From positions 895 to 64,894 of the forward strand of contig DASPMW010000109.1 in the NCBI GenBank assembly GCA_035626855.1: DNA of 64,000 nucleotides. The letters run 5' to 3'. Positions 22,421-42,164 of this stretch are shown piece after piece. Below the pieces are notes generated by a model. That model searched no databases. It was given only the letters and a program-made list of their open reading frames with translations, and had not been told where the DNA came from. The stretch is from Patescibacteria group bacterium. Lineage in GTDB: Bacteria; Pseudomonadota; Alphaproteobacteria; Micavibrionales; UBA2020. The translations under genes were made by a program, and so were the position numbers. Every line of letters begins with the position of its first letter. The first letter of the stretch is position 1.

Positions 22421-23830
22421 ATGTGGTCGCTAAAGTCACTGCTTACATGGCAACGCGATAAGCCGGACGCGGGAAAGTCGCCCGGCGTCAATGTCGATGC
22501 GCCTGTCGTCCTTGAGGCGAAATCGATGGCGGGCGCCCAGCCGCTGCTCGATTACATCAAGGGATTCGAGTGCAATTCCAACATCGCGATCGCGGCGGCA
22601 GAGGGAAAGCGCCTCGGCCCCTATTTCAACGCGCTTGGCGGCTACCTGAGCCAGGCGATCGAGCTCGACACCACGCCGCGCGCGCCCGAAGAAACCGCCG
22701 CGCTGAAGGACGCCGCGCAGCCAGAGCGCCTGCGAACCTTGTTCAACACTGTCGCGGAGAAAACACGCAACACGCTTGTATCGGATGTCGTCATCGCGCC
22801 GCTGACCGTTTTGCAAAACGGCCCCGCCGCGCATTTCTTCAAGGATCAGGACCAGTTTGCGATCGGCTATGAAACGGGCGGCCACCCGTTCAAGTTCGGC
22901 TTCCTGCAGGTCTTCGAAAACAAGCGCCCGACCGAAGGGAAAGGCAGCGTGAGCTTTCCGGTCTTCCTGCTCGATGAAGCCATGATGGACGCCGTCGCGC
23001 CGCACGCCCCCGAGGCATTGCTGCGCGGGCTGCAGAAAACCCTCGCCTTCGTGAATCACGACATGCTGCACCACCTGACGGCGCCCGTCATCAAGGGCTC
23101 GGTTGCCGCGAAAATATCACCGGACCCCGCCGCCAATGCGCTTTATTTCCCGGAGCATCCCCTGCGGCTGTGGCTGGAGCAACTACCCAAGTTCGGCGAT
23201 AACGAACTCTATGAAGAATGGGCGCAGATCAGCCATGAAGGCGCGATGCTGTCGCCCGCCAACCTTGCGCAGGTCGCGTCGCTCGACCGCGATGTAGCGC
23301 AGTTTTTTAAGGACCTCAAAACCATCGGGCAGGATATCGCCGCCGAAAAGGGCGTGCCGGCGGCGCATGAGGTTGTCGATTACTACGGCATGGTGATGGC
23401 GCATGCCCTGACCCGCGTCTTTCCCCTGCACCACCCCGTGATTGCGCGCTGCCTCGACGGCTTGCAGGCGGCCGACCCGCAGCCGGCGACGCCGGAGAAT
23501 GCCGCCGCCGACGCGGTCGGGGGAATGCGGGAAAGGCCGGATCTCGCGCTGAAAAACCTGATGCAATTGGTGACGATCAATGGCGGATTGATGCGGCTGG
23601 TCGACAATTACCGCAAGGAGGGCCTGCATATCCTGCCCGCGGAAGAAGACAAAAATCCGGACTGGAAAGGCGTCAAGCTGCTGCAGATCGCGCGGATGGC
23701 AATGGATGACGTCCACCCGCATATGCCGGAGCCGCTTAACAACAGCATGAAGGAAATGCGCGCGCAGGCGGGCCCGCAAACCGTGCGCATGTTCGGCGCA
23801 ACCGTGAAGGCTTTTACCGGCACCTGGTAA
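22421..23830 (+). CDS. Hypothetical protein (orphan, 469 aa) with C-terminal GPQTVRMF...KAFT motif
   Basis: Long ORF with coding-like codon usage and no family I recognise; His-rich patch FVNHDMLHHL. The C-terminus AQAGPQTVRMFGATVKAFTGTW resembles the tails of the four paralogs at 24151-26226. Confidence 0.55.
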   Translation: MWSLKSLLTWQRDKPDAGKSPGVNVDAPVVLEAKSMAGAQPLLDYIKGFECNSNIAIAAAEGKRLGPYFNALGGYLSQAIELDTTPRAPEETAALKDAAQPERLRTLFNTVAEKTRNTLVSDVVIAPLTVLQNGPAAHFFKDQDQFAIGYETGGHPFKFGFLQVFENKRPTEGKGSVSFPVFLLDEAMMDAVAPHAPEALLRGLQKTLAFVNHDMLHHLTAPVIKGSVAAKISPDPAANALYFPEHPLRLWLEQLPKFGDNELYEEWAQISHEGAMLSPANLAQVASLDRDVAQFFKDLKTIGQDIAAEKGVPAAHEVVDYYGMVMAHALTRVFPLHHPVIARCLDGLQAADPQPATPENAAADAVGGMRERPDLALKNLMQLVTINGGLMRLVDNYRKEGLHILPAEEDKNPDWKGVKLLQIARMAMDDVHPHMPEPLNNSMKEMRAQAGPQTVRMFGATVKAFTGTW

Positions 23831-23854
23831 TTCCCGGAACGAAAATTGCCGCCC

Positions 23855-23986
23855 GGCATTGGCTGGGCAGGGGACAAAGCTGCCTTTCCCGTGTTCAAAG
23901 ACACAGTTCAGGTCGCTTTGTTTCCAACCGTTTCGGCCCTTGTGGCCGCGAGAGAAGATCCAAGGCTCACGCCTTGGATCTTTTTC
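23855..23986 (+). ncRNA. Candidate small RNA, tandem copy 1 (conserved 5' region, 5-bp hairpin, intrinsic terminator)
   Basis: GGCATTGGCT...GTGTTCAAAG...TTTCGGCCCTTGTGGCCGCGAGAGAAGATCCAAGGCTCACGCCTTGGATCTTTTTC. The 12-bp stem AAGATCCAAGGC/GCCTTGGATCTT plus a T-run is a + strand terminator. The unit is repeated at 24018-24141. Confidence 0.4.
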
Positions 23987-24017
23987 TTTGTTCACTTGGG
24001 AACGACATGCCGCGCTG

Positions 24018-24141
24018 GGCATTGGCTATGCAGGAACCGAGAGCATATCAGTGTTCAATCACAGATATATTCTCGTTTCCGCTAGTTTCGGTCCTCGTGA
24101 CCGCGAGAGAAGATCCAAGGCTCACGCCTTGGATCTTTTTC
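24018..24141 (+). ncRNA. Candidate small RNA, tandem copy 2
   Basis: GGCATTGGCT...GTGTTCAATC...TTTCGGTCCTCGTGACCGCGAGAGAAGATCCAAGGCTCACGCCTTGGATCTTTTTC. The last 41 nt are identical to copy 1. The upstream hairpin is CGGTC/GACCG against CGGCC/GGCCG in copy 1 (a compensatory change). A possible -35/-10 pair is TTGGCT-N16-CATATC. Confidence 0.4.
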
Positions 24142-24150
24142 GCATTCGGG

Positions 24151-24612
24151 TCACGACCTGCGCGTGAATTTCGCGGTGCCGGGTCCTGAAATGGGTTGGG
24201 TGAGCTTCATGGCGGGTGGCTGGAACGGCGGTGGCGGCGGTTTTGGCGCGGCAGCATACTGCGCTGCAAGGCCTGCCAGGATATTCTGGCGGCTGCCCTC
24301 ATAGGCGGGCCGGATAAAGTTGCTCCAGCGTCTGTTCGCATCCGCGTCATTCTCCTCCAGCGCCACGCGATCGGCCTGAAAGAGCGGTGTGACGGCCGTG
24401 GAATAGGCCTCGCTGGTGGTCAGAGGTCGGCCGTCCTTTATTCCGTATGACCCCTTCTGCGCCAGACCTGCAAGGCGTTCGAGATTGGCGGCGCCCTCAT
24501 TAAACAGCGCGGCGATTCCCTTGTGTTGCGCATGCAGCGCCTGGAACTGCAGCAGGTCGCGAAAATCCTCAAGCGTATTCACCTCGTAGGATTCGAGCGG
24601 CCGGGCGGTCAT
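24151..24612 (-). CDS. Orphan paralog D (153 aa) of the four-gene small-protein array
   Basis: LERLAGLAQKGSYGIKDGRPLTTSEAY..., a Pro-rich linker, and the C-terminus PISGPGTAKFTRRS. The start overlaps the stop of the upstream paralog as ATGA (24609-24612). Confidence 0.6.
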   Translation of the reverse strand: MTARPLESYEVNTLEDFRDLLQFQALHAQHKGIAALFNEGAANLERLAGLAQKGSYGIKDGRPLTTSEAYSTAVTPLFQADRVALEENDADANRRWSNFIRPAYEGSRQNILAGLAAQYAAAPKPPPPPFQPPAMKLTQPISGPGTAKFTRRS

Positions 24613-25052
24613 GGCGTTTCCCGGCGGAAATGCGCTGTTGGCGGCGCGGGGACGGGATGCGTCAGTAGCATCGGCGCAGTCAGCGGCACAGGCAACACGC
24701 CGGGTCCATGCGCCTTCTCCAGCGCGGTCAGGATCTGGTTTTTATTACGGGCGAAATCGGTCAGCAGGCCGCGCGCAGCCTCGGCGCCGGCCTCATCCTT
24801 CTCCATCTTTGCAGCGCTGATTGCCTCTCCGATGGGAGCCTGCGCGTGGTTGTAGGCGTCGACAAGCGTGAGCGGCGTGCCGTCCTCGGCCGCGCCGAAA
24901 TCTCCCTGCCAGGCCTGGCTTTCCATGCGCCGCAGCCGGACTGCGCTTTCAGTGAAAAGCGCGCTGAGGGCGGGTGTCCGCGCATGGCGCGATTCCATCA
25001 TCACAAGCCCGGCCAGCGCTTCCAGCGAAATCAGGTTGACCGGTCCCGTCAT
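24609..25052 (-). CDS. Orphan paralog C (147 aa)
   Basis: LRRMESQAWQGDFGAAEDGTPLTLVDAY... with the C-terminus PVPAPPTAHFRRETP. There is an ATGA overlap at 25049-25052. Confidence 0.6.
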   Translation of the reverse strand: MTGPVNLISLEALAGLVMMESRHARTPALSALFTESAVRLRRMESQAWQGDFGAAEDGTPLTLVDAYNHAQAPIGEAISAAKMEKDEAGAEAARGLLTDFARNKNQILTALEKAHGPGVLPVPLTAPMLLTHPVPAPPTAHFRRETP

Positions 25053-25801
25053 GGCGCGGCCCGCTTGCGAAACTGCGCTGTTTTCGGGGCGGAAACGGGG
25101 CCCGCGGACGCCATGTTGTAAACCGGCTTGCGCGCCTTCGCCAGGAACTCGCTCGTCGCGGCGTCATGGCGCATGACGAGGTGGCTTTTCATTCTTTCGC
25201 CATCCTGCGCGAGCCATTTATTTATCTCCTGCAGGTGCAGGCCGAGGCTCCCTTCCGACATTGCGGCCGCCATGTTGAGGTTATCATAGGGCTTGAAGAT
25301 CGCGCTCCATGCTTCCGCCAGCGTCTGTTCGCGGTCGGCGACGCGACCGTAGCTGCCCTTGGCCGTCTGCCACTGCAGCTCCTGTAACCCCTCCGCCATC
25401 TTGCCGAGCGTCCCGCCTGCCACATCCTTGTCCTTGGCACGAAGCAGGTCGATAAGACCGCCCAGCCGCTTTGTCCCGGGCTCTGCGCCGGGAACCTGGC
25501 GTTTCAGCTCGTGCATGGCGTCGGAGGCGAAGGCGAGAAAGACGTCGAAGGCTTCCCGAAGCGGGCCCTTCTCGGGCAGGTCGGAAAAAGCGCTGAGCAA
25601 GGCCTGAGAATCCCTGCGCAGCGTGTCGGCGTCGAGCCTGCCTGCCGATGCGTCATCTTCCATGCGGCGCAGGGTTTGCGCCCAGCGCCGGTATTCGCCT
25701 GCACTCAGCACGCCCGGCGTGACATCTGCCGCATAGTTAAAAAGGTCGCGAAGAATGGCAACGCTGTGAAAGTCGGCATGGGTTTGCGGTTGCGCGGTCA
25801 T
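25049..25801 (-). CDS. Orphan paralog B (250 aa, internally duplicated version)
   Basis: The second half reads LQELQWQTAKGSYGRVADREQTLAEAW... and ends GPVSAPKTAQFRKRAAP. The first half (RRWAQTLRRMEDDASAGRLDADTL) resembles the same module. There is an ATGA overlap at 25798-25801. Confidence 0.6.
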   Translation of the reverse strand: MTAQPQTHADFHSVAILRDLFNYAADVTPGVLSAGEYRRWAQTLRRMEDDASAGRLDADTLRRDSQALLSAFSDLPEKGPLREAFDVFLAFASDAMHELKRQVPGAEPGTKRLGGLIDLLRAKDKDVAGGTLGKMAEGLQELQWQTAKGSYGRVADREQTLAEAWSAIFKPYDNLNMAAAMSEGSLGLHLQEINKWLAQDGERMKSHLVMRHDAATSEFLAKARKPVYNMASAGPVSAPKTAQFRKRAAP

Positions 25802-26226
25802 GCGCCCAGCTTCTGCCGCGGCCGGAAGCGCGCGGTCACCGGCGCCGCGATCGGCTGCGGCTGGCTTGCCGCAGTTGCGAGATCATGTGTTTCCTCCAGC
25901 GCCTGGCGCATGGGCCCGCCCATCCACTGGAAGGACTTGAGGACATCTTCCCACTGCTCGAAAAGCCCGGGGCGGCCGGCATCGGCCAGCGCGCGGACTT
26001 GGTTGGCCGGGGCGACCACATAGTCGAGGGCGTCATCGAGCGATGCGGATTTTCCGCCGATAGTGCCGTAGCTGCCCTTCTGCACAAGGGTGCTCAGGTC
26101 GCTGAACCGCTGCGCCGACTGCGCGTAGAGGGTTTTTGCATCGGGATCCGTCGATTTGTCTGCGGAGGCATTAAAAAGGGCCTGAAAGCGCTCAACCCGC
26201 CACCATTCGATCTCTTTTCCAGCCAT
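25798..26226 (-). CDS. Orphan paralog A (142 aa from ATG 26226)
   Basis: FSDLSTLVQKGSYGTIGGKSASLDDAL... with the C-terminus PIAAPVTARFRPRQKLGA. I prefer the ATG at 26224-26226 (GGGGGGA 6-7 nt upstream) to the TTG at 26244. Confidence 0.6.
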   Translation of the reverse strand: MAGKEIEWWRVERFQALFNASADKSTDPDAKTLYAQSAQRFSDLSTLVQKGSYGTIGGKSASLDDALDYVVAPANQVRALADAGRPGLFEQWEDVLKSFQWMGGPMRQALEETHDLATAASQPQPIAAPVTARFRPRQKLGA

Positions 26227-26303
26227 GCGATTCCCCCCTAACAAAGGCAGGTACAGTATAGCCGGTTATGTAAACTTGTCAAACGGGCGGGAATTGTGAA
26301 ATA

Positions 26304-26492
26304 TTATTTCACGATCTTCAGTTCGGTCTTGGCGAGGAATTTAAACACGCCTTCAAGCGATTCCTGGTACTCCTCCCACCGCTTTTGCTGGTCGGCGCGG
26401 GGCAGCCCGGCGATGTCGGGCCGGGCGAGGAAGGTTTCGCAGATCGTGTGCTCGCCGAAATATTCGCAGGCCCGGGCGGTGGAGCGCTTCAT
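26304..26492 (-). CDS. Hypothetical 62-aa protein
   Basis: MKRSTARACEYFGEHTICETFLARPDIAGLPRADQQKRWEEYQESLEGVFKFLAKTELKIVK. Third-position GC is high, and the start lies 11 nt after the stop of the membrane-protein gene. Confidence 0.5.
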   Translation of the reverse strand: MKRSTARACEYFGEHTICETFLARPDIAGLPRADQQKRWEEYQESLEGVFKFLAKTELKIVK

Positions 26493-26503
26493 GGAATGGA
26501 TCC

Positions 26504-27622
26504 TTACGGTGCCGCGATTTTCGGCGGGCGGTTGCCATGCTCGGGTGGGTTGATCGCCTCCGCCGCAGGCTGCTGGTTTTCGTTCGCGGGCGCAGGCGGC
26601 ACGATTTTCGCCTTCATCGCGAAGACCTGCTGCAGGTCGACCTTGTCGAGATCGGCAGGCGCCACTTCCGGCCCCGGGATGCGCTCGTTGTTGTTGGTCG
26701 CGACCTGCACGCTGGTCTTGGCGACCGGCGTTGCGGCATTGGTGACCGTGACGGGTACGGGCACGGGCGCTGCGACGACTTCCGGCTTCTTGCCGAAGCC
26801 GAACAGCTTGAGCGGCGCGGTCACGATATTCTTGAAGATCTGCTTCGCGCCGCCCGGAGTGATGCGGCGTTCCATTTCCGCGAGCACGACCGCATTCAGC
26901 AGATGCGCGCCGGCGATAAGCCCGTGGCCGTTCGCCTGGCCGATGCCGGCGAACACGCCCGCGGCGCCCGCGGTTATCAGTTTCGGATGCGCGTTGTATT
27001 CCGGCTTGCCCTGGATCGAGTTCTTCACGCCGAGCGCAAATGCGACCGCAACGACGGGCAGGATGAACAGCGCCGCGCCGCCCGCCATCAGCCCCGCGAG
27101 CGCGAAGCCGGCGTTCAGGTAGATGTCGGGGCGCTTGAAGATCGTCGTGACGATATCGACCGCCTTGGCAAAGCCCTTCTTCGGCTCGGCCGGCTTCTTG
27201 TCTTTTTCGTCGGCGATATGTTTCTTGGAAATGCTTTCGGCGAGGCGGAAATTCGCGACCGCGAAAAGAAGGCTGGCAGCGGCGGGCAGCCAGGCGCCCG
27301 TGGCGACCGTCGCGCCCGTCACGACGAGCAGCGCGAGGCCCCCGGCGCGCAGCGGCGTGCGGTCATCAAAAATGGCTTTCTTCACGCGCGGGTGCTTGTC
27401 GAGCCAGGTCGGCTGCAGCACGGCCGCCGTCTTGAGGGTCGCGGCGATGCCCGTCGCCGTCAGCATCGCGCCGAGGCCGACCGGGTTGGTGCCGGCGAAC
27501 ATCAATACATCTGCGGTGGTGTAGGCGATGCCCGGGTCGAGCACCACATGCTTGGTCAGTGCGCCGGGGATTTCCCAGCCGGTTGCCTTCGGTATTTCCT
27601 GCTTCGGTCCGGTCGTTCCCAT
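26504..27622 (-). CDS. Polytopic Gly/Ala-rich membrane protein with Pro-rich C-terminal tail (orphan)
   Basis: 372 aa with about six hydrophobic segments (for example GLALLVVTGATVATGAWLPAAASLLFAV, FALAGLMAGGAALFILPVVAVAFALGV). The C-terminal third is low-complexity (PVPVPVTVTNAATPVAKT...PPAPANENQQPAAEAINPPEHGNRPPKIAAP). It is the first gene of the minus-strand cluster. Confidence 0.6.
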   Translation of the reverse strand: MGTTGPKQEIPKATGWEIPGALTKHVVLDPGIAYTTADVLMFAGTNPVGLGAMLTATGIAATLKTAAVLQPTWLDKHPRVKKAIFDDRTPLRAGGLALLVVTGATVATGAWLPAAASLLFAVANFRLAESISKKHIADEKDKKPAEPKKGFAKAVDIVTTIFKRPDIYLNAGFALAGLMAGGAALFILPVVAVAFALGVKNSIQGKPEYNAHPKLITAGAAGVFAGIGQANGHGLIAGAHLLNAVVLAEMERRITPGGAKQIFKNIVTAPLKLFGFGKKPEVVAAPVPVPVTVTNAATPVAKTSVQVATNNNERIPGPEVAPADLDKVDLQQVFAMKAKIVPPAPANENQQPAAEAINPPEHGNRPPKIAAP

Positions 27623-27840: not shown

Positions 27841-28525
27841 TCAGCGCCAAGCCAGCAGCTCCCGCCCCTCGCGGCGCAGCCAGGCGCGGCATTCCCGTGA
27901 CTTGGGCGCAAGGGTGACGCAAACCCGCCAGAACTGGCGGCTATGGTCCATATGGACGCGGTGGGCGACCTCATGCGCGACCACATAATCCATGACCGCA
28001 TAGGGGGCGAGGATCAAGCGCCAGGAATACATGATCCGGCCGCCCGGCGCGCAGGAGCCCCAGCGCGATTTCGGGTCGAGGATGCGGACGCTCGCGTTTT
28101 TGAGGCCGAGCGACGCGGATTTTTCCTGCGTCAGTCTGGTCAGCGTGTCGAGGGCCACACCCTTCAGGAAATCTTTCACGCGTCGCGCGACGTGCTCCGG
28201 CTGGCCGTGGACGATCAGGCGGTCGTCTTCAAACCGCGTCAGCCCGCGACCTGCCGCATGAACGATCGTATAATTTTTTCCGCCAACCGGCACGACCGCC
28301 CCCGGCGCGAAAATTTTCGGCGCGACCGCCTGCGATTTCTGCTGCGCGATCCAGCCGCGGTTATCCTCGATGAATTTCAGCGCGCGGTCTGGCGTCAGGC
28401 GCGATTTCAGCGGCCAGGTGAAAACGACATCGCCCGTGCGCGCCTCGACCCGCAAGCCCATGCGCTTCGCCCGCGCGGAGGGCCTGACGCGCAAGCCGCC
28501 GATTTCAAGCGGGATCGTCGCCGCC

Positions 28526-28554
<29 letters not shown>
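27841..28554 (-). CDS. YgjP/DUF45-family zinc metallohydrolase (M48-like)
   Basis: 237 aa. WGSCAPGGRIMYSWRLILAPYAVMDYVVAHEVAHRVHMDHSRQFW contains the HExxH motif in the typical DUF45 context. Confidence 0.8.
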
Positions 28555-30064
<1,510 letters not shown>

Positions 30065-31198: not shown

Positions 31199-31864
31199 TC
31201 AATGGCACGACGCCTTGCATTCTTCTTCCTCCTTCGCCGCGATCTCCAGCAGCGCGTGGAGGATTTTCGCGCGGGCGGGGAGGTCGGGGGCTTCGAGGAG
31301 GGCTTGTTTTTCTTCGGTTGAGAACGGGCAGACGACGCTCAAAGTCGAGATCAGCTTTTCGCATTCGATGTTGCGGATGGTTTCCCATTTGTCGCAGAAC
31401 ATCTGCATTTTATCGAGGTATTGGCGCAGCGTAGTCATCATCGTGTCGCGGCAGATATCGGTCGTCGTGTCGCAGGCGAGGTCGTGATGATACTGCTGCC
31501 ATGTTGCCTTGACGCGGCGGTAGCCGCCCGCGGCCAGCGGCAGTTCCTGCGCGACGTCGAAGCGGCAGACGCCCTTCAGCGTAATGAGGTAGCGGCCGTC
31601 TTCAGTCTCTGAAAAGGACGTAATGCGCCCCGCGCAGCCGGTCGTGAAGGTTTGGTCATTCGCGCCGTCGGCGGCATCGGGCTTCGGCTGGATCATGCCG
31701 ATCAGCCGGCCGTTGCTCATCGCGTGGTTGACCATGGCAAGATAGCGCGGCTCGAAGATATTGAGCGGCAGCTGCACGCGCGGCAGCAGGATCACGCGCG
31801 GCAAGGGAAATATAACCAGTTCTTCGGGCAGGTTTTCGACGCTGATCGGGAAGGCTTCGGTCAT
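31199..31864 (-). CDS. LON N-terminal (substrate-binding) domain protein
   Basis: 221 aa. [30 protein letters not shown] is the typical LON-N domain start. Confidence 0.8.
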
Positions 31865-35790: not shown

Positions 35791-36378
35791 ATGGCAAGCA
35801 AAACTAAAAGCCTCCCCTTCCTCCCCGCGCTGATGGCAAGGGCACAGGAATTCTTCTCCCGGCTGGCGGGCTGGCTGGATGCAGTACTCGCGCCCCTCGA
35901 GGCGGAATGGACCGCTGCTCCCGCTCTCGTCCCCGCCAGGATTTCCGAAACCCGCACCCGCCGCATCACGACCGCCCGCCTCTACAAGCGCCGCCGCCTT
36001 TCGGCGCGTGCGGTGCTGATGATGGCGCATCCGGTCAACCATGCCCATAAATGGGCAGCCCGCGTGGCGAAGCGCCGCGCGCTGGCGGCGCCCGCGCTGC
36101 CCGTGCCTGCATCCACCATCCGTTTCCCCCAACCTCCCGCTTCGCGACGACTGGAATCCGCGCTGCCCGCCGCCTCAGGTTATGCCCCTGGGGATGCCCT
36201 TGATTTTGCCCAAGGCGGGCGCGCGGATCTTTTTTTCCGCCTGCGCGCGGGCACCGGCGCCCGGCAGTTGCTGGCGCGGCAGAAATTGCGCCAACCCGAA
36301 TTGAGAACGCAAGCATTGCGACCCCCGGTCAGCAGGCATCCTGCGGCGGCATTCACACCCCGCCCCATGATTGCCTGA
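35791..36378 (+). CDS. Hypothetical Arg/Ala/Pro-rich protein (uncertain)
   Basis: 195 aa with GGAG 8 nt upstream of the ATG and GC-rich third positions. A hairpin plus T-run (CCCCTCCTC...GAGGAAGGGG..CGTTTTT) follows the stop. The composition is also what wrong-frame ORFs give in GC-rich DNA. Confidence 0.35.
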   Translation: MASKTKSLPFLPALMARAQEFFSRLAGWLDAVLAPLEAEWTAAPALVPARISETRTRRITTARLYKRRRLSARAVLMMAHPVNHAHKWAARVAKRRALAAPALPVPASTIRFPQPPASRRLESALPAASGYAPGDALDFAQGGRADLFFRLRAGTGARQLLARQKLRQPELRTQALRPPVSRHPAAAFTPRPMIA

Positions 36379-36476
36379 CGCCAGCTTCGGCGGCTTGATC
36401 GTGAGCCAATCCCCCTCCTCCCCGGCGGCGAGGAAGGGGATCTCCCGTTTTTCATGATTCATGCGATACTGGAACA

Positions 36477-36770
36477 ATGGCGCGCCGGTTCAGCGAAGAG
36501 GAATATATCTGCCAGGATTGCGGGCATCTTGGCCGCGCAGAAGTCACCCTGCGCGGCAGCGCGGGGCTGGAGCGGTTCCTTTGGTATGCGCTGCTGATAC
36601 CCGGCCCCTTTTATTCCTGGTGGCGGCGGCGGGGGAAAACCCTGACCTGCGCGAAGTGCCGCGTCGGTTATATCGTGCCCGCGGACAGCAAGCTCGGCGA
36701 GGTGATGCTGGAGAACAAGCTGCGCGGCCGCGCCCCCGCCGCGCGCAAGCCGATTCCGCGGCGCAATTGA
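36477..36770 (+). CDS. Small zinc-ribbon protein with hydrophobic insert between the CxxC pairs
   Basis: 97 aa. YICQDCGH...LERFLWYALLIPGPFYSWW...LTCAKCRVGY, followed by a basic tail. Confidence 0.5.
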   Translation: MARRFSEEEYICQDCGHLGRAEVTLRGSAGLERFLWYALLIPGPFYSWWRRRGKTLTCAKCRVGYIVPADSKLGEVMLENKLRGRAPAARKPIPRRN

Positions 36771-36815
36771 GCGGCCCCTGCGGTTCGGCCTATACTGGCG
36801 CAAAGGGGAAACACA

Positions 36816-37634
36816 ATGAAGCTCTGCAAATACTGGGACGCCGCTGAAACGACGGCGCCGGACGCGACCGGGAAGATATTGAAACTGCGCAAATGGGGCG
36901 GATCGAATACCAGCCTGGAGGATGCGCAGCGACAGGCGTGCGCGGCGCTGGATGCGCTCGTCGCAGGGTTGGGCGCGCGCGTGTTCAGAGGGCACGACTA
37001 TTCCTACAGCATGCGCGAGGTGCCCGAGGAGCTGGTGCAGGAAATCAGCGACACCGCGGGCGTCACACGCAATGCGCGCGGCTGTCTGGTTCTCAATACC
37101 GCCGATGCGTTCTTTGCCGATATCGATATTCCGGAGCCGGGATTTTTCGCGCGTCTGTTCGGCGCGTCGAAAGAGAAGGCGGAGCAGGCGGCGCTTTCAA
37201 AGCTGCGCACGTTCATCGCGGCGCATCCCGGTGCCGGCGCGCGCATCTATCGCACGCGCGCGGGCCTGCGTTACCTGTTCACGCATGCGCCGGTGCCCAT
37301 GAGCGAGGAAAGCATCGGCTGGCTGGAGGCGCTTGGCAGCGACAAGCTCTATGTGCGCCTGTGCAAGAACCAGAAATGCTACCGGGCAAGGCTGACGCCG
37401 AAGCCCTGGCGCATCGGCTGCGGGGCGATCGCGGGGCATTACCCCTATCGCCGCCCGGAACACGCCGAGGGATTCCGGAACTGGCTGCGCGACTACGAAG
37501 AAAAGTGCCGCGCCCACGCGACCTGCAGCCTTGTCGGCACGGAGGGGGAAACGCGCCTTCACCCGGCACTGTCGCCTATCGTGACGCTGCATGACAAACT
37601 ATGCCGAATTCACGAGCCCCTGCCGCTCGCCTGA
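36816..37634 (+). CDS. Hypothetical protein (orphan, 272 aa) with DxD motif
   Basis: Coding-like ORF. The motifs FFADIDIPE, ARIYRTRAGLRYLFTH, LGSDKLYV and CYRARLTPKPWR occur in that order. No family recognised. Confidence 0.55.
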   Translation: MKLCKYWDAAETTAPDATGKILKLRKWGGSNTSLEDAQRQACAALDALVAGLGARVFRGHDYSYSMREVPEELVQEISDTAGVTRNARGCLVLNTADAFFADIDIPEPGFFARLFGASKEKAEQAALSKLRTFIAAHPGAGARIYRTRAGLRYLFTHAPVPMSEESIGWLEALGSDKLYVRLCKNQKCYRARLTPKPWRIGCGAIAGHYPYRRPEHAEGFRNWLRDYEEKCRAHATCSLVGTEGETRLHPALSPIVTLHDKLCRIHEPLPLA

Positions 37635-37709: not shown

Positions 37710-40700
37710 TTAAACGACGATCGTGCCGGAGCCAACGAGGGCAGTCTCGTCCGTGCCGAGGTTGACGCCGGTGAGGGTTGCGATCTGCACCCAGCGCGTG
37801 CCGTTTGCCGTGCCATCCGCATCGACGCGGATGATGGTGTTGGCACCCTGGTTGATGACCTGCAGGTAGTCCTCGATCGGGCCGCCCGGGCTGCCCAGGA
37901 TCGCGGAAACGTCGATCACGTCGCCTTGGCCGACGTTGAAGTCGGTCACGGTGTCGCGGCCGTTCGCGGTCGAGGTGAACAAGAAGGTATCGGCATCCGC
38001 GCCGCCGGTCAGGCGGTCGTTGCCGAGGCCGCCGTCGAGGAAGTCGCCGCCCAGGCCGCCGAGCAGCGTATCGTTGCCGCCGAGGCCGGAGAGGGTGTTG
38101 ATGCCGTCGTTGCCGGTGAGCGTGTTGGCAACCGAGTTACCCGTGCCGTCGAGATCGAGCACGCCCGTCAGCAGCAGTTTTTCGAGGCCGGTCGCCAGCG
38201 TGACGTCGATCGTCGAGGAAGTGACGGTATCAACGCCGTTGCTGTCGATGATCACGTCGCCTAAGTCGTCAACGACATAGGTGTCGTTGCCGGCGAGGCC
38301 GATCAGCGTATCCGCGCCGCCGCCGCCGTCGAGCGTGTTGATGCCCGAGGTGCCGGTGATCGTGTTGGTGTTGGCGTTGCCGGTGCCGTTCAGGGCGCCG
38401 TTGCCGGTGAGCACCAGGTTGTCGATCAAGGCATCTGACTGCGCGCCGCCCAGATCGAAGCTGATGCTGGAGCGGACAGTATCGGTGCTGGTCGCCGAGC
38501 CTTCAACGCTGTCACCGACGTTATCGACCACGAAGGTGACGTTGTTGAGGCCGCCGCCCGCGTTGACCATGACATCCGCGCCCGCGCCGCCGTTGAGGGT
38601 GACGTTCGCGCCGACTGCTTCCGAGGTCAGCGTGTTGTCGCCGGTGCCGCCCGTGAGGGTGCCTGCGCCGGTGATGACGCCGTTCTCGATATTGGCCGAG
38701 AGCGTATAGGTGCCGTTCGATTCGACGGTGTCATCGCCTTCGCCGGCTGCTTCGGAAACCACATCGGTCGAGGAGTCGACGACGTAGTAATCGTCGCCCA
38801 TGCCGCCGATGAGGCGATCGTTGCCGCCGCCGCCGTCGAGCGTGTCGTTGCCGCCAAGGCCGGTCAGGGTGTTGTTGCCCGTGTTGCCGGTGATGACGTC
38901 ATCATCGTTCGTGCCGGTGATGTTGATGTTCCCCGTGCCGGTTGCGATCACGTTCTCGAGGTTGCTGCCGGTCAGCGTGTAGTTGACGGAGGTGAAGAGC
39001 GTATCGTCGCCTTCGCCCAGCAGCTCGGTCACGACGTCGCCCGCGTTGTCGACATAGTAGGTGTCGTCGCCGTCGCCGCCGGTCATGCTGTCCGCGCCGG
39101 TGCCGCCGTCGAGCGTATCGTTGCCGAGGCCGGATTCCAGCGTGTCGTTGCCGCCAAGGCCGTTCAGGACGTTGTCGCCGTCGGTGCCCGTGATCGAGTT
39201 GTCGGAGGCGTTGCCGGTGCCATCGATCGCGCCGACGACCAGGGTGTCGAGAATGAGGTTCTCGACGCCCGCGCCGAGCGTCAGGGAAACGCTGGAGAAC
39301 GCGGTGTCGTTGCCGCCGCCGAGGTCGGTGACCACGTCGCCGACGTTATCGACGATGAAGTAGTCGTTGCCCGCGCCGCCTTCCATCGAGTCCGCGCCGG
39401 CGAGGCCGTCGAGCGTGTTGTTGCCCGAGTTGCCGACCAAGGTGTTGACCGAGGCATTGCCGGTTGCGTTGAAGTCGCCGGTGCCCGACAGGGTCACATT
39501 CTCGAACTCAGCTGCCGCGGTGTAGGAGTAGCCGGCGACGACGGTATCGTTGCCTTGACCCGCCACTTCCGAGAGCACATCGCCGGGGTTGTCGGTGACG
39601 TAGGTATCGTCGCCCGTGCCGCCGATGAGCGTATCGACGCCCGCGCCGCCATCGAGCGTGTTGTTGCCCGAGTTGCCGGTGATGGTGTTGGCGGCCGCGT
39701 TGCCGGTGCCGTTGATGTTGGCGGTGCCGGTGAGGTTGAGGATTTCAACTTCGCTGGTGCCGCTCAGGGTGTAGCTGACCGAGGCGTTGACGGTATCGGT
39801 GCCTTCGCCCGCGTTTTCGAATACCTGGTCGCCGGCGTTATCGACGAAGTAGAGGTCGTTGCCTGCGCCGCCGGACATCGCGTCCGCGCCGCCCATGCCG
39901 TCGATCGTGTTGGCGTTACCGTTGCCGGTGATGACGTTCGCGCCGGCATCGCCGATGGCGGTGACAGCCGCACCGGTGATGGTCAGGTTCTCGATGTTGC
40001 CGGACAGGGTGTAGTCGACCGAGGAAATCACGGTATCGGTGCCCTGGCCTGCCAGTTCGGAAACGACGTCGAGGGAGCTGTCAACGACGTAGGCATCGTT
40101 GCCGAGACCGCCGATCATGGTGTCGTCGCCCGTGCCGCCGTCGAGGCTGTCATTGCCGTCGCCGCCCGACAGGATGTCGATATCCGCGCCGCCCGACAGC
40201 GTATCCTGGCCGTCGCCGCCCGACAGGACGTCGTTGCCGGCGAGGCCGGTGAGGGTGTTGTTCGACGCGTTGCCGGTGATGATGTTGGCGTCGCCATTGC
40301 CCGTGCCGATGAGAGCGGTGCCGGTCAGGGTCAGGTTATCGACATCGGTCGTGCCAGCCGCGCCCAGGTCCCAGTTGATGCTGGAGCGGACTTCGTCGCC
40401 GGCAAGGTTGCCGTCAACGGTATCAAGCGCGTTGTCGACGACGAACACGGTGCGAATGTAAGCGCTGGTGCTGCTCATCGTGTCCGCGCCTGTGCCGCCA
40501 TCGAGCGTTTCGGTGCCGCTGACGCCGTACTTGGTGCTCGGCGTTCCATTAACGTTGTTGACCAGCGTGTCGTTGCCATCGCCGCCCAGCAGGATGTTGT
40601 TCACCGAGGGTTCGCCGAAAAAGGCGCCGTTGAAGGTGGAGTTGTCGGTGATGACGTTCGCGCCGGTGTTGCCCGTCGCGGTCATCGCGAGCGCGCCGTA

Positions 40701-42164
40701 TTTCTGTGCATCGCCTTCCAGCGTCAGGTTTTCGAGGTTACCGGACAGGGTATAGGAGGTGTTGTTGCGCAGAATAACCGTATCTGTGCCGGCCGCAGCG
40801 TCTTCCGAGACGATGTCGCCATTGTTGTAGATGATGTAAACATCGTTGCCTGCGCCGCCAATGAGCGTATCGGTGCCGCCCGCGCCGCCGCCATCAAGCG
40901 TATTGGCGAGCGCGTTGCCGGTCAGGACGTTGGAGCCGGTCGTGCCAACCGCGGTCGAGCCTGCAATGGCTGACGCGGTGAGCGTGAGGTTTTCGACGTT
41001 GGAAACGGTGGCGCCCTGGAGGCTCAGCGTCACATCGGAGAGGATAGTGTCGGTGCCGTCGCCGCCGTCAACGACTTCCGCGCCGCTGTGGACGAGGAGC
41101 GTGTCATTGCCGTCGCCGCCATTCAGCGTGTCGTTGCCCGAGACGCCATCGAGCGTGTTGTTGCCGGAGTTGCCGGTGATGATGTTCACGGACGCGTTGC
41201 CGGTGCCGTTGAAGTTGCCGGTGCCGGTCAGGGTAAGGTTTTCGAAGTTCGCGCTGAGGGTTGTCGTGAAGCCCGCGTTCACGGTGTCGGTGCCTTCCGC
41301 CGCCGCTTCGGTGATGCTGTCGGACGCGTTGTCGAGGAAGTAGGTGTCGTCGCCGAGACCGCCCGCCATGCTGTCGTTGCCCGCGCCGCCTTCCAGCGTG
41401 TCGTTGCCGTCGCCGCCAACGAGCGTGTCGTTCGCGCCGCCGCCGTCTAGCGTGTTGCCGAGGTCGTTCGCCGTAATCACGTTCGCGCCGGTGCTGCCGG
41501 TCGCGGTTGCGCCCGCGCCTGCGGCTGCGGAGAGCGTGAGGTTCTCGACGCCCGCGCTCTGGGTAGCAAGGCTCCAGCTGACATCCGAAACGATAAGGTC
41601 GGATGCGCCGTTCGCGCCGGTCACGGTGTCGCCCGTGCTGCCAACCAGGAAGGTGGTGTTGCCGCCGCCGGTGCCCGACATGATGTCGGAGCCCGCGCCG
41701 CCATCCAGCGTGTTGCTGCCGGCGGATGCGTTGATGAGCGTGTTGGCAAGGCCGTTGCCCGTCAGCGTGAGGCCGGTACCGGAGGTGATAGTGCCGTTCT
41801 CGATGAAATCGCCGAGGGTGTAGGTGACGGATGCGCGCACCGAATCAATGCCGCCGCCATCCGTGGTGGCGTCGGTTTCATCCGCGACGTCGAGGATGCT
41901 GTCGACGACATAGGTATCGTTGCCGTCGCCGCCGTACATGTAGTCGTCGCCGGTGCCGCCATCGAGGGAGTCGTTGCCGTCGCCGCCCAGCAGCGTGTCG
42001 TCATTCGCGTCGCCGTTCAGGGTGTCGTTGCCATTGCCGCCGTCAACGATGTCGTTTCCTGCGCCGCCATTGGCCGTGTCATTGCCTTTGTCGAGAAGGA
42101 TAACGTCTGCACCCGCGGTGCCGTTAAGAGAGTCGCTGCCGGTAGTGCCTTTGACGGTTGCCAT
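37710..42164 (-). CDS. Giant RTX (hemolysin-type calcium-binding repeat) protein, putative T1SS substrate
   Basis: 1484 aa consisting almost entirely of GGxGxDxUx nonapeptides (GGAGNDTLNGG..., GGDGNDTYVVD...). These are arranged in about 14 larger modules, each ending ...YTLSxxxENLTLTGxxxxxGTGN. It has no Cys and is acidic. The C-terminus (DVIDVSAILG...TIIRVDADGTANGTRWVQIATLTGV...GSGTIVV) is typical of a non-cleaved T1SS signal region. Confidence 0.9.
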   Translation of the reverse strand: MATVKGTTGSDSLNGTAGADVILLDKGNDTANGGAGNDIVDGGNGNDTLNGDANDDTLLGGDGNDSLDGGTGDDYMYGGDGNDTYVVDSILDVADETDATTDGGGIDSVRASVTYTLGDFIENGTITSGTGLTLTGNGLANTLINASAGSNTLDGGAGSDIMSGTGGGNTTFLVGSTGDTVTGANGASDLIVSDVSWSLATQSAGVENLTLSAAAGAGATATGSTGANVITANDLGNTLDGGGANDTLVGGDGNDTLEGGAGNDSMAGGLGDDTYFLDNASDSITEAAAEGTDTVNAGFTTTLSANFENLTLTGTGNFNGTGNASVNIITGNSGNNTLDGVSGNDTLNGGDGNDTLLVHSGAEVVDGGDGTDTILSDVTLSLQGATVSNVENLTLTASAIAGSTAVGTTGSNVLTGNALANTLDGGGAGGTDTLIGGAGNDVYIIYNNGDIVSEDAAAGTDTVILRNNTSYTLSGNLENLTLEGDAQKYGALAMTATGNTGANVITDNSTFNGAFFGEPSVNNILLGGDGNDTLVNNVNGTPSTKYGVSGTETLDGGTGADTMSSTSAYIRTVFVVDNALDTVDGNLAGDEVRSSINWDLGAAGTTDVDNLTLTGTALIGTGNGDANIITGNASNNTLTGLAGNDVLSGGDGQDTLSGGADIDILSGGDGNDSLDGGTGDDTMIGGLGNDAYVVDSSLDVVSELAGQGTDTVISSVDYTLSGNIENLTITGAAVTAIGDAGANVITGNGNANTIDGMGGADAMSGGAGNDLYFVDNAGDQVFENAGEGTDTVNASVSYTLSGTSEVEILNLTGTANINGTGNAAANTITGNSGNNTLDGGAGVDTLIGGTGDDTYVTDNPGDVLSEVAGQGNDTVVAGYSYTAAAEFENVTLSGTGDFNATGNASVNTLVGNSGNNTLDGLAGADSMEGGAGNDYFIVDNVGDVVTDLGGGNDTAFSSVSLTLGAGVENLILDTLVVGAIDGTGNASDNSITGTDGDNVLNGLGGNDTLESGLGNDTLDGGTGADSMTGGDGDDTYYVDNAGDVVTELLGEGDDTLFTSVNYTLTGSNLENVIATGTGNINITGTNDDDVITGNTGNNTLTGLGGNDTLDGGGGNDRLIGGMGDDYYVVDSSTDVVSEAAGEGDDTVESNGTYTLSANIENGVITGAGTLTGGTGDNTLTSEAVGANVTLNGGAGADVMVNAGGGLNNVTFVVDNVGDSVEGSATSTDTVRSSISFDLGGAQSDALIDNLVLTGNGALNGTGNANTNTITGTSGINTLDGGGGADTLIGLAGNDTYVVDDLGDVIIDSNGVDTVTSSTIDVTLATGLEKLLLTGVLDLDGTGNSVANTLTGNDGINTLSGLGGNDTLLGGLGGDFLDGGLGNDRLTGGADADTFLFTSTANGRDTVTDFNVGQGDVIDVSAILGSPGGPIEDYLQVINQGANTIIRVDADGTANGTRWVQIATLTGVNLGTDETALVGSGTIVV

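Follow-up and report, generated by a model that had tools for sequence, protein, structure and literature searches.

A conserved C-terminal motif on four tandem paralogs of a Micavibrio-like alphaproteobacterium

Four paralogs with a common C-terminal tail

In chemoreceptors a short peptide, NWETF, holds the protein CheR. The described systems closest to the case reported here are SspB, FtsZ and LarA; the XB peptide of SspB (RGGRPALRVVK) and residues R379/K380 of FtsZ act on the ClpX N-domain (PMC3983244), and in LarA (DUF1150), a small alphaproteobacterial Lon activator, the last five residues act on Lon and carry the whole AAA+ protease interaction (PMC10665427). We have analyzed a stretch of 64,000 nucleotides (positions 895 to 64,894 of contig DASPMW010000109.1, assembly GCA_035626855.1; hereafter the window) in which four paralogous genes, called A to D, encode proteins that end in a common basic motif. 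These genes are consecutive on the minus strand with an ATGA overlap at every stop/start junction, and they and their tail motifs lie as follows:

26255..26282, minus strand, predicted sigma-70-like promoter, TTGACA-16-TATACT, 11/12 consensus match
25798..26226, minus strand, paralog A, 142 aa, opens the paralog operon with an ATG at 26226
25816..25845, minus strand, tail motif of A, APVTARFRPR; the next residues, QKLGA, overlap the start of B
25049..25801, minus strand, paralog B, 250 aa, about 100 additional N-terminal residues, ATG overlapping the stop of A (ATGA)
25061..25090, minus strand, tail motif of B, APKTAQFRKR
24609..25052, minus strand, paralog C, 147 aa, ATGA overlap with B
24621..24647, minus strand, tail motif of C, APPTAHFRR
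24151..24612, minus strand, paralog D, 153 aa, final operon gene; its poly-Pro linker is the longest
24157..24186, minus strand, tail motif of D, GPGTAKFTRR

The mechanical open reading frame (ORF) list starts paralog A earlier, at TTG 26244. A Shine-Dalgarno sequence, AGGGGGG, is present between the predicted promoter and the ATG of A. Given the ATGA overlaps and the near-consensus promoter before A, the four genes look like a separate operon; they are probably translationally coupled and, judging from these sequence signals, probably transcribed from their own predicted promoter.

The proteins A to D align with each other as paralogs and are tandem duplicates of one undescribed family that is restricted to Micavibrio-like Alphaproteobacteria. 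None of them has a match in Pfam, NCBIfam, PADLOC or PHROG, and a family-profile search of 1.84 billion representative proteins gave about 16 family clusters. Metagenome scans seeded with the A-type alignment, and with the alignment of a membrane protein encoded upstream (below), returned no relatives. Both the family and its motif are undescribed in the libraries searched, and the architecture of domain, linker and C-terminal peptide is of a known kind. As the carriers are four tandem paralogs, the motif is shared by descent and is not convergent on unrelated proteins. A preliminary description of the window had placed the tail on otherwise divergent proteins; its implication that the peptide is retained for a separate function stands, but the carriers belong to a single family.

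The C-terminus of A is APVTARFRPRQKLGA, that of B is APKTAQFRKRAAP, that of C is APPTAHFRRETP and that of D is GPGTAKFTRRS. The window was translated in six frames, and all stop-to-stop frames of 60 codons or more were taken (79,163 residues); in this set the pattern [AG]P.T[AV].F has four matches, all of them the C-termini of A to D, and the stricter [AGE]P.TA.F[RKST][RKP] likewise finds these four and nothing else. A relaxed form of the motif, sought within 18 residues of the C-terminus in 2,590 six-frame ORFs from 293 kb (the window and related loci), occurs on 23 family tails and one non-coding frame. The motif on A to D is real and chance is excluded as its source; as far as the 293 kb show, it does not occur at the chance frequency that the preliminary description had named as a possible refutation. 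The four tails and their positions, as first described, are borne out by the window sequence and by these scans.

That description had also counted a fifth carrier, the protein of the converging gene:

22421..23830, plus strand, 469-aa protein ending AQAGPQTVRMFGATVKAFTGTW, convergent with paralog D

This part of the claim does not hold. The GPQTVRMF of the 469-aa protein fits just the loosened pattern P.T[AV].{1,2}F, and in the window this pattern is found at the ends of eight frames, of which four are the paralog tails, one is the 469-aa protein and three are non-gene frames; no basic residues follow GPQTVRMF. The protein was taken for an orphan and is not one, as it has 15 homolog clusters (33–42% identity, in metagenome-assembled genomes (MAGs) of Alphaproteobacteria, some extended to about 710 aa); these homologs end in ..TLDM[VI]xAAxK[ST]..Y.. 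and GPQTV is not conserved among them. Its gene lies between rpsA and the paralog operon in this genome only and is not present in the syntenic loci examined. No match to the 469-aa protein was found in Pfam, NCBIfam, PADLOC or PHROGs.

AlphaFold2 (AF2) models of A and D both predict a four-helix bundle with a short hairpin at KGSYG and then a non-helical tail with a predicted local distance difference test (pLDDT) of 67–86. In the model of A (pLDDT 93) the helices run from 8–24, 28–49, 63–82 and 87–121 and the hairpin from 54–60; in that of D (mean pLDDT 91) residues 11–120 reach 96–98 and the coil 131–153 has 67–71. According to these models the tail lies outside the helical fold. Each protein combines an acidic four-helix bundle (about 120 residues, with the KGSYG hairpin conserved), then a Pro-rich variable linker, and then the basic C-terminal motif, a short linear motif of about 12–16 residues that can be written hydrophobic-x-[AG]-P-x-T-A-x-F-[KR]-x-[KR]. 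In A to D the tail has a net charge of +1 to +4 and the body one of –1 to –5. Linker length differs by more than 20 residues across the family. The Pro-rich or flexible linker that was said to precede the motif in every case is evident in C and D, with 6 and 9 Pro in the 25 residues before it, and less so in A and B (3 and 2 Pro). Only 4–8 residues, mostly polar or basic, follow the Phe in A to D, and in A, B and C the additional terminal residues are encoded where the gene overlaps the next one.

Foldseek comparison with PDB and BFVD gave no match better than E 0.18. In a PDB sequence search the family profile matches eukaryotic eL13 best, in the N-terminal extension of this ribosomal protein and at a marginal E of 0.005; the segment ..LRPIVRCPTVKYNRRT of the extension aligns with rpvaappTakFrrr (family profile positions 88–147). 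This match is probably compositional, yet it is the sole external sequence that resembles the tail, and with the basic character of the tail it raises the idea of a nucleic acid- or ribosome-binding extension, like the basic segments of ribosomal proteins. We regard this as very improbable: the E-value is marginal and compositional bias likely, there are just 2–4 basic residues in the tail, the acidic body would repel nucleic acid, and no further evidence supports the idea.

Conservation of the tail in related genomes

The conservation set comprised 22 distinct tail-bearing members from about ten related genomes, and in all 22 AP..A.F is kept and followed by basic residues. Within the clade of the window, represented by eight syntenic loci, all members end in [AE]P-x-T-A-x-F followed by two to three residues that are mostly Lys or Arg, and in two more distant single-copy lineages the tails are APEPATFKKR and APVAASFKAKPKA. 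The motif is thus kept in every ortholog found, which was the check that the preliminary description had proposed, and its invariant core is A-P..A.F plus basic residues. The more distant family members found by the profile search have different tails, ..MQPIRFRYGQSTVAA, ..MKTIKFRYRQPVAA, ..IVLLSRLVLRQPSG and ..IRLLNQSVLRLSL, and one (P0013) has none.

Of all windows of seven alignment columns among the 22 members, that of the motif has the lowest entropy (0.80 bits versus a mean of 1.87), and of the five invariant columns it takes in three. Pairs of members are on average 32% identical in the body and 66% identical in the nine-residue tail. The conserved Ala, Pro, Thr and Phe of the motif show synonymous codon changes among members. 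Comparison of the window with the related locus L002 gives identities of 97% for RpsA, 94% for LeuA, 82% for the membrane protein, 70% for YgjP, 51% for A and 35% for B, and the number of paralogs varies from one to four among relatives, the window having the most. The tail is under purifying selection on its amino acids, while bundle, linker and copy number can vary freely.

Two other accounts of this conservation were considered. The idea that nucleotide signals serving the downstream gene conserve it incidentally was rejected because terminal genes (D in the window, B in L002) keep the motif and because its codons change synonymously; the overlap with the start region of the next gene is limited to a few residues past the basic pair. 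A phospho-Thr/FHA reading of T-x-x-F was set aside, as the Thr is replaced in locus L017 (APVAASF) and shifted in L010 (APEPATF).

At L001 11257–11723 the third paralog is split into ORFs of 78 aa and 106 aa, and it is intact in P0012 (168 aa) and in L008. The split results from a frameshift, which reflects an assembly error or a pseudogene and is in keeping with a rapid turnover of copies.

The tail as a putative tethering peptide

By analogy with the systems above, we tentatively favor the view, to which we give a little less than even weight, that the tail is a tethering peptide that docks A to D onto one common partner. Every paralog would be held on the same cellular partner whatever the divergence of its bundle, so that the bundles would supply divergent specificities and the tail the common connection; candidate partners would be the N-domain of an AAA+ protease or the co-located membrane protein. 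The anatomy (a variable linker, an acidic body with a basic tail, and neither a signal peptide nor a hydrophobic segment) fits a tether, and the distance from the Phe to the C-terminus, which ranges from 3 to 8 residues across members, argues against a reading in which the free carboxylate is recognized.

As in SspB, alignments and AF2 models of A to D point to a folded domain, a flexible linker and a conserved C-terminal peptide with hydrophobic and basic residues, and the tail is kept while the remaining protein varies. The two differ in the peptide itself (AP-x-T-A-x-F-R/K versus ALRVVK in XB) and in the body, which in A to D is a four-helix bundle; Pfam and NCBIfam find no SspB substrate-binding domain in A to D, and no SspB gene is present within the 293 kb of the window and related loci. 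FtsZ likewise has a disordered linker followed by a conserved Pro/Ala/Phe/basic peptide, which serves as a common docking site; in Escherichia coli it is DIPAFLRKQAD, with R379/K380 needed for recognition by ClpX (PMC3983244). However, the register is P-A-F-L-R-K in FtsZ and P-x-T-A-x-F-R-K in A to D, which are not tubulin homologs and carry their peptide on a multi-copy accessory family. The LarA tail, unlike those of A to D, is hydrophobic, has a terminal His and comes after a helix, and LarA has no sequence or family relation to A to D in Pfam or NCBIfam.

The tail, exposed at the C-terminus and containing hydrophobic and basic residues, might also be a degron by which a single ATP-dependent protease would recognize every paralog as a substrate; we consider this improbable. 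Among the known ClpX signals, those of the MuA type are basic and C-terminal. Recognition of C-terminal degrons takes place mostly at the extreme end of the chain, and here both the end residues (GA, AP, TP, RS, KA, KP, AR and RK) and the distance of the Phe from the end vary. The FtsZ residues R379/K380 are required for degradation by ClpXP (PMC3983244), and the C-terminus of LarA is at the same time a Lon degron and a Lon activator (PMC10665427). The degron reading overlaps with docking and does not exclude it.

The other candidate partner, the membrane protein, is one of the genes that lie upstream of the operon:

26304..26492, minus strand, 62-aa ORF between the membrane protein and A, conserved at 66–82% identity, with 66–72% to orthologs
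26504..27622, minus strand, membrane protein, 372 aa, Ala/Gly-rich, multi-pass, with a long Pro-rich C-terminal region
27841..28554, minus strand, YgjP-like metallopeptidase gene (HExxH), PF01863, E 2.6e-42
28526..30064, minus strand, leuA, its 3′ end overlapped for 29 bp by the YgjP-like gene

The membrane protein has no match in Pfam, NCBIfam, PADLOC or PHROGs and belongs to no recognizable transporter family; its own family has 52 clusters at 90% identity, all unannotated. Its C-terminal peptide, DLDKVDLQQVFAxKAKI..PANEN..PPEHGNRPPKIAAP, is strongly conserved within the clade of the window. The gene is duplicated in locus L019 and lies at a different locus in L013. All AP..A.F-tailed members seen lie downstream of it. 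The idea that the membrane protein is an obligate partner is weakened by the fact that each occurs without the other.

Several points weigh against the tethering view. Its mechanism rests on analogy, and the motif sequence matches no known docking peptide. In the AF2 models the tails have pLDDT 67–86 and not below 50, so that the tail could pack on its own bundle, in cis or in trans. Secreted effectors of a predatory lineage might likewise show fast divergence and changes in copy number, and since the scan covered 293 kb, the motif may be used elsewhere in the proteome. As for a link to the membrane protein, that protein occurs without paralogs in Micavibrio sp. and other lineages, and distant family members directly follow ygjP with no membrane protein; the link between membrane protein and paralogs is therefore suggestive but confounded by phylogeny, and it is not obligatory.

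The modeled tails bear on a second alternative, which we consider doubtful: that the tail is a self-association element, latching onto its own bundle or onto that of the next paralog to give head-to-tail homo- or hetero-oligomers. The predicted tail coil has a pLDDT of 70–83 in A and 67–71 in D, above what is usual for free disorder; the basic tail would meet an acidic body; the ATGA coupling suggests stoichiometric co-production; and the conserved residues G51, A66 and P73 cluster in the hairpin and helix 3, where they could form a receiving site. Against it, linker length is widely variable, and distant members keep the hairpin motif with other tails (RFRY, LVLR) or, in P0013, with none, so tail and hairpin are not strictly coupled. 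Single-copy lineages keep the tail, and therefore hetero-oligomerization is not its sole role.

At this locus, a hot spot flanked by highly conserved housekeeping genes, a private family duplicates and quickly diverges while it keeps a peptide of 7–10 residues constant. A hub-and-spoke arrangement, with many specificities and one connection, would yield such a pattern. The molecular understanding of Micavibrio-like epibiotic predators is poor, and the identity of the partner would give a new alphaproteobacterial adaptor of regulated proteolysis, a new predator export signal or a new self-assembling bundle; if the tail is a mere private structural feature of a small family, the interest is local only. 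The case is clean and testable, its value hangs on the binding partner of the tail, and so short a peptide could serve directly as bait.

Neighboring genes, possible export and the source organism

The body of the family has a likeness of its own. The weaker family-profile matches are phage endolysins with CW_7 repeats (whole-library E 1e-6 to 4e-4), and hhalign aligns family columns 44–81 (38 columns) with the whole CW_7 repeat (PF08230) at 83% probability and E 9e-6. The end of helix 2, the KGSYG hairpin and helix 3 of the family align with G-x-Y-G-x(4)-[RK]-x-A-x-L of CW_7, and the family K/R aligns with the conserved CW_7 Arg that in Cpl-7 contacts the muropeptide (PMC5705596). In contrast, the family has one copy of the element, set within a four-helix bundle, whereas CW_7 forms three-helix modules that are usually in tandem, and the family model predicts a hairpin at the position of the second CW_7 helix (PMC5705596). 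Unlike CW_7 endolysins, A to D have neither a hydrolase domain nor a signal peptide, and no paralog has a Pfam match to CW_7 even at E up to 1. From these sequence comparisons, the likeness is probably a remote similarity of the body and not of the tail.

A gene on the other side of the YgjP-like gene and leuA also bears on export:

37710..42164, minus strand, RTX protein, 1484 aa, 19 RTX calcium-binding repeat matches

This 1484-aa protein is a probable type I secretion substrate. Hemolysin-like proteins of this kind are typical of Micavibrio (PMC3189940). Three small ORFs that precede it (35791–37634) have no family match.

The tail could also be read as an export or targeting signal by which proteins that have no signal peptide leave the cytoplasm of an epibiotic predator and act on the envelope or the prey, possibly through the neighboring membrane protein or by an undescribed route. 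We think this unlikely, although several observations are consistent with it: the Micavibrio-like lineage, the effector-like combination of fast divergence with a copy number of one to four, the CW_7-like helix-hairpin-helix, which hints at an extracytoplasmic ligand, the position of all AP..A.F-tailed members downstream of the membrane protein, and the RTX type I substrate 12 kb from the paralogs. However, the tail matches no known signal, and A to D have no RTX repeats and no hydrophobic or acidic end like that of type I substrates. There is no ATP-binding cassette (ABC), membrane fusion protein (MFP) or other secretion gene within the operon, and the membrane protein lacks a recognizable transporter family and exists without the paralogs. 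The motif is found on this single family in the 293 kb, and export signals are usually common to unrelated cargo. The cultured relative M. aeruginosavorus has type I and type II secretion and no type III or type IV systems (PMC3189940), which also argues against export. A more specific form of the idea is less likely still, namely that the tail is a lineage-specific new export signal that sends diversifying, CW_7-like, muropeptide-binding bundles to the cell wall of prey or predator by an undescribed route, which might involve the membrane-protein family.

In a comparison with the known classes of signal, no known secretion or sorting family fits; none of the secretion, sorting or degradation families was confirmed for A to D. 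The sequences of A to D contain no N-terminal signal peptide and no hydrophobic segment, so with no transmembrane segment the sorting-type signals are excluded. In particular, no hydrophobic segment follows the motif as in the signals of sortase, exosortase or rhombosortase (LPXTG, PEP-CTERM, GlyGly-CTERM), and the earlier view that the tail is not of the sortase, exosortase or PEP-CTERM type, with 4–8 polar residues after the Phe, was correct. Tat substrates have an N-terminal S/T-R-R-x-F-L-K that is followed by a hydrophobic region; the F-R-R of A to D is C-terminal and has no such region. VirB/D4 type IV signals and encapsulin loading peptides are short, unstructured, C-terminal, basic and placed after a linker on differing proteins. 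The net charge of the A to D tails, +1 to +4, resembles that of VirB/D4 substrates, which are net positive over roughly their last 20 residues, and no type IV secretion system is present in the annotated regions of the window. Encapsulin cargo-loading peptides have a GSL-type core, unlike the A to D tails, and no encapsulin shell gene was found among the called genes with Pfam marks at the syntenic loci or among the operon neighbors. With regard to type I secretion, A to D have no HemolysinCabind match, the C-terminus of the RTX protein is quite unlike their tails, and no transporter gene is present in the paralog operon or the syntenic loci.

The 62-aa ORF upstream of A is confined to the clade of the window and absent in L010 and L017, its association with A to D is positional only, and it has no match in Pfam, NCBIfam, PADLOC or PHROGs. 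The overlap of the YgjP-like gene with leuA is kept in all related loci. The window also encodes a stand-alone LON_substr_bdg protein at 31199–31864. Overall, the locus is bounded by cmk-rpsA on one side and leuA-ygjP on the other, and the relatives with this synteny are labeled Alphaproteobacteria, Bdellovibrionales or Micavibrio sp. (NCBI places Micavibrio under Bdellovibrionales). Given the gene content, the window G+C content of 60% and the synteny with Alphaproteobacteria/Micavibrio MAGs, the source is a Micavibrio-like alphaproteobacterium, and the NCBI label "Patescibacteria group bacterium" looks like a binning or taxonomy error.

We also note that the convergent gap between the 469-aa gene and D holds two perfect copies of a 37-bp element, GAGAGAAGATCCAAGGCTCACGCCTTGGATCTTTTTC, at 23950–23986 and 24105–24141 (0 expected by chance), each within a repeat of about 57 bp. 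Each copy consists of a 15-pair hairpin followed by a T-run and is terminator-like on the plus strand. Translations that resemble the element are found in L001, and it may be a repetitive extragenic palindromic (REP)-like family of the lineage.

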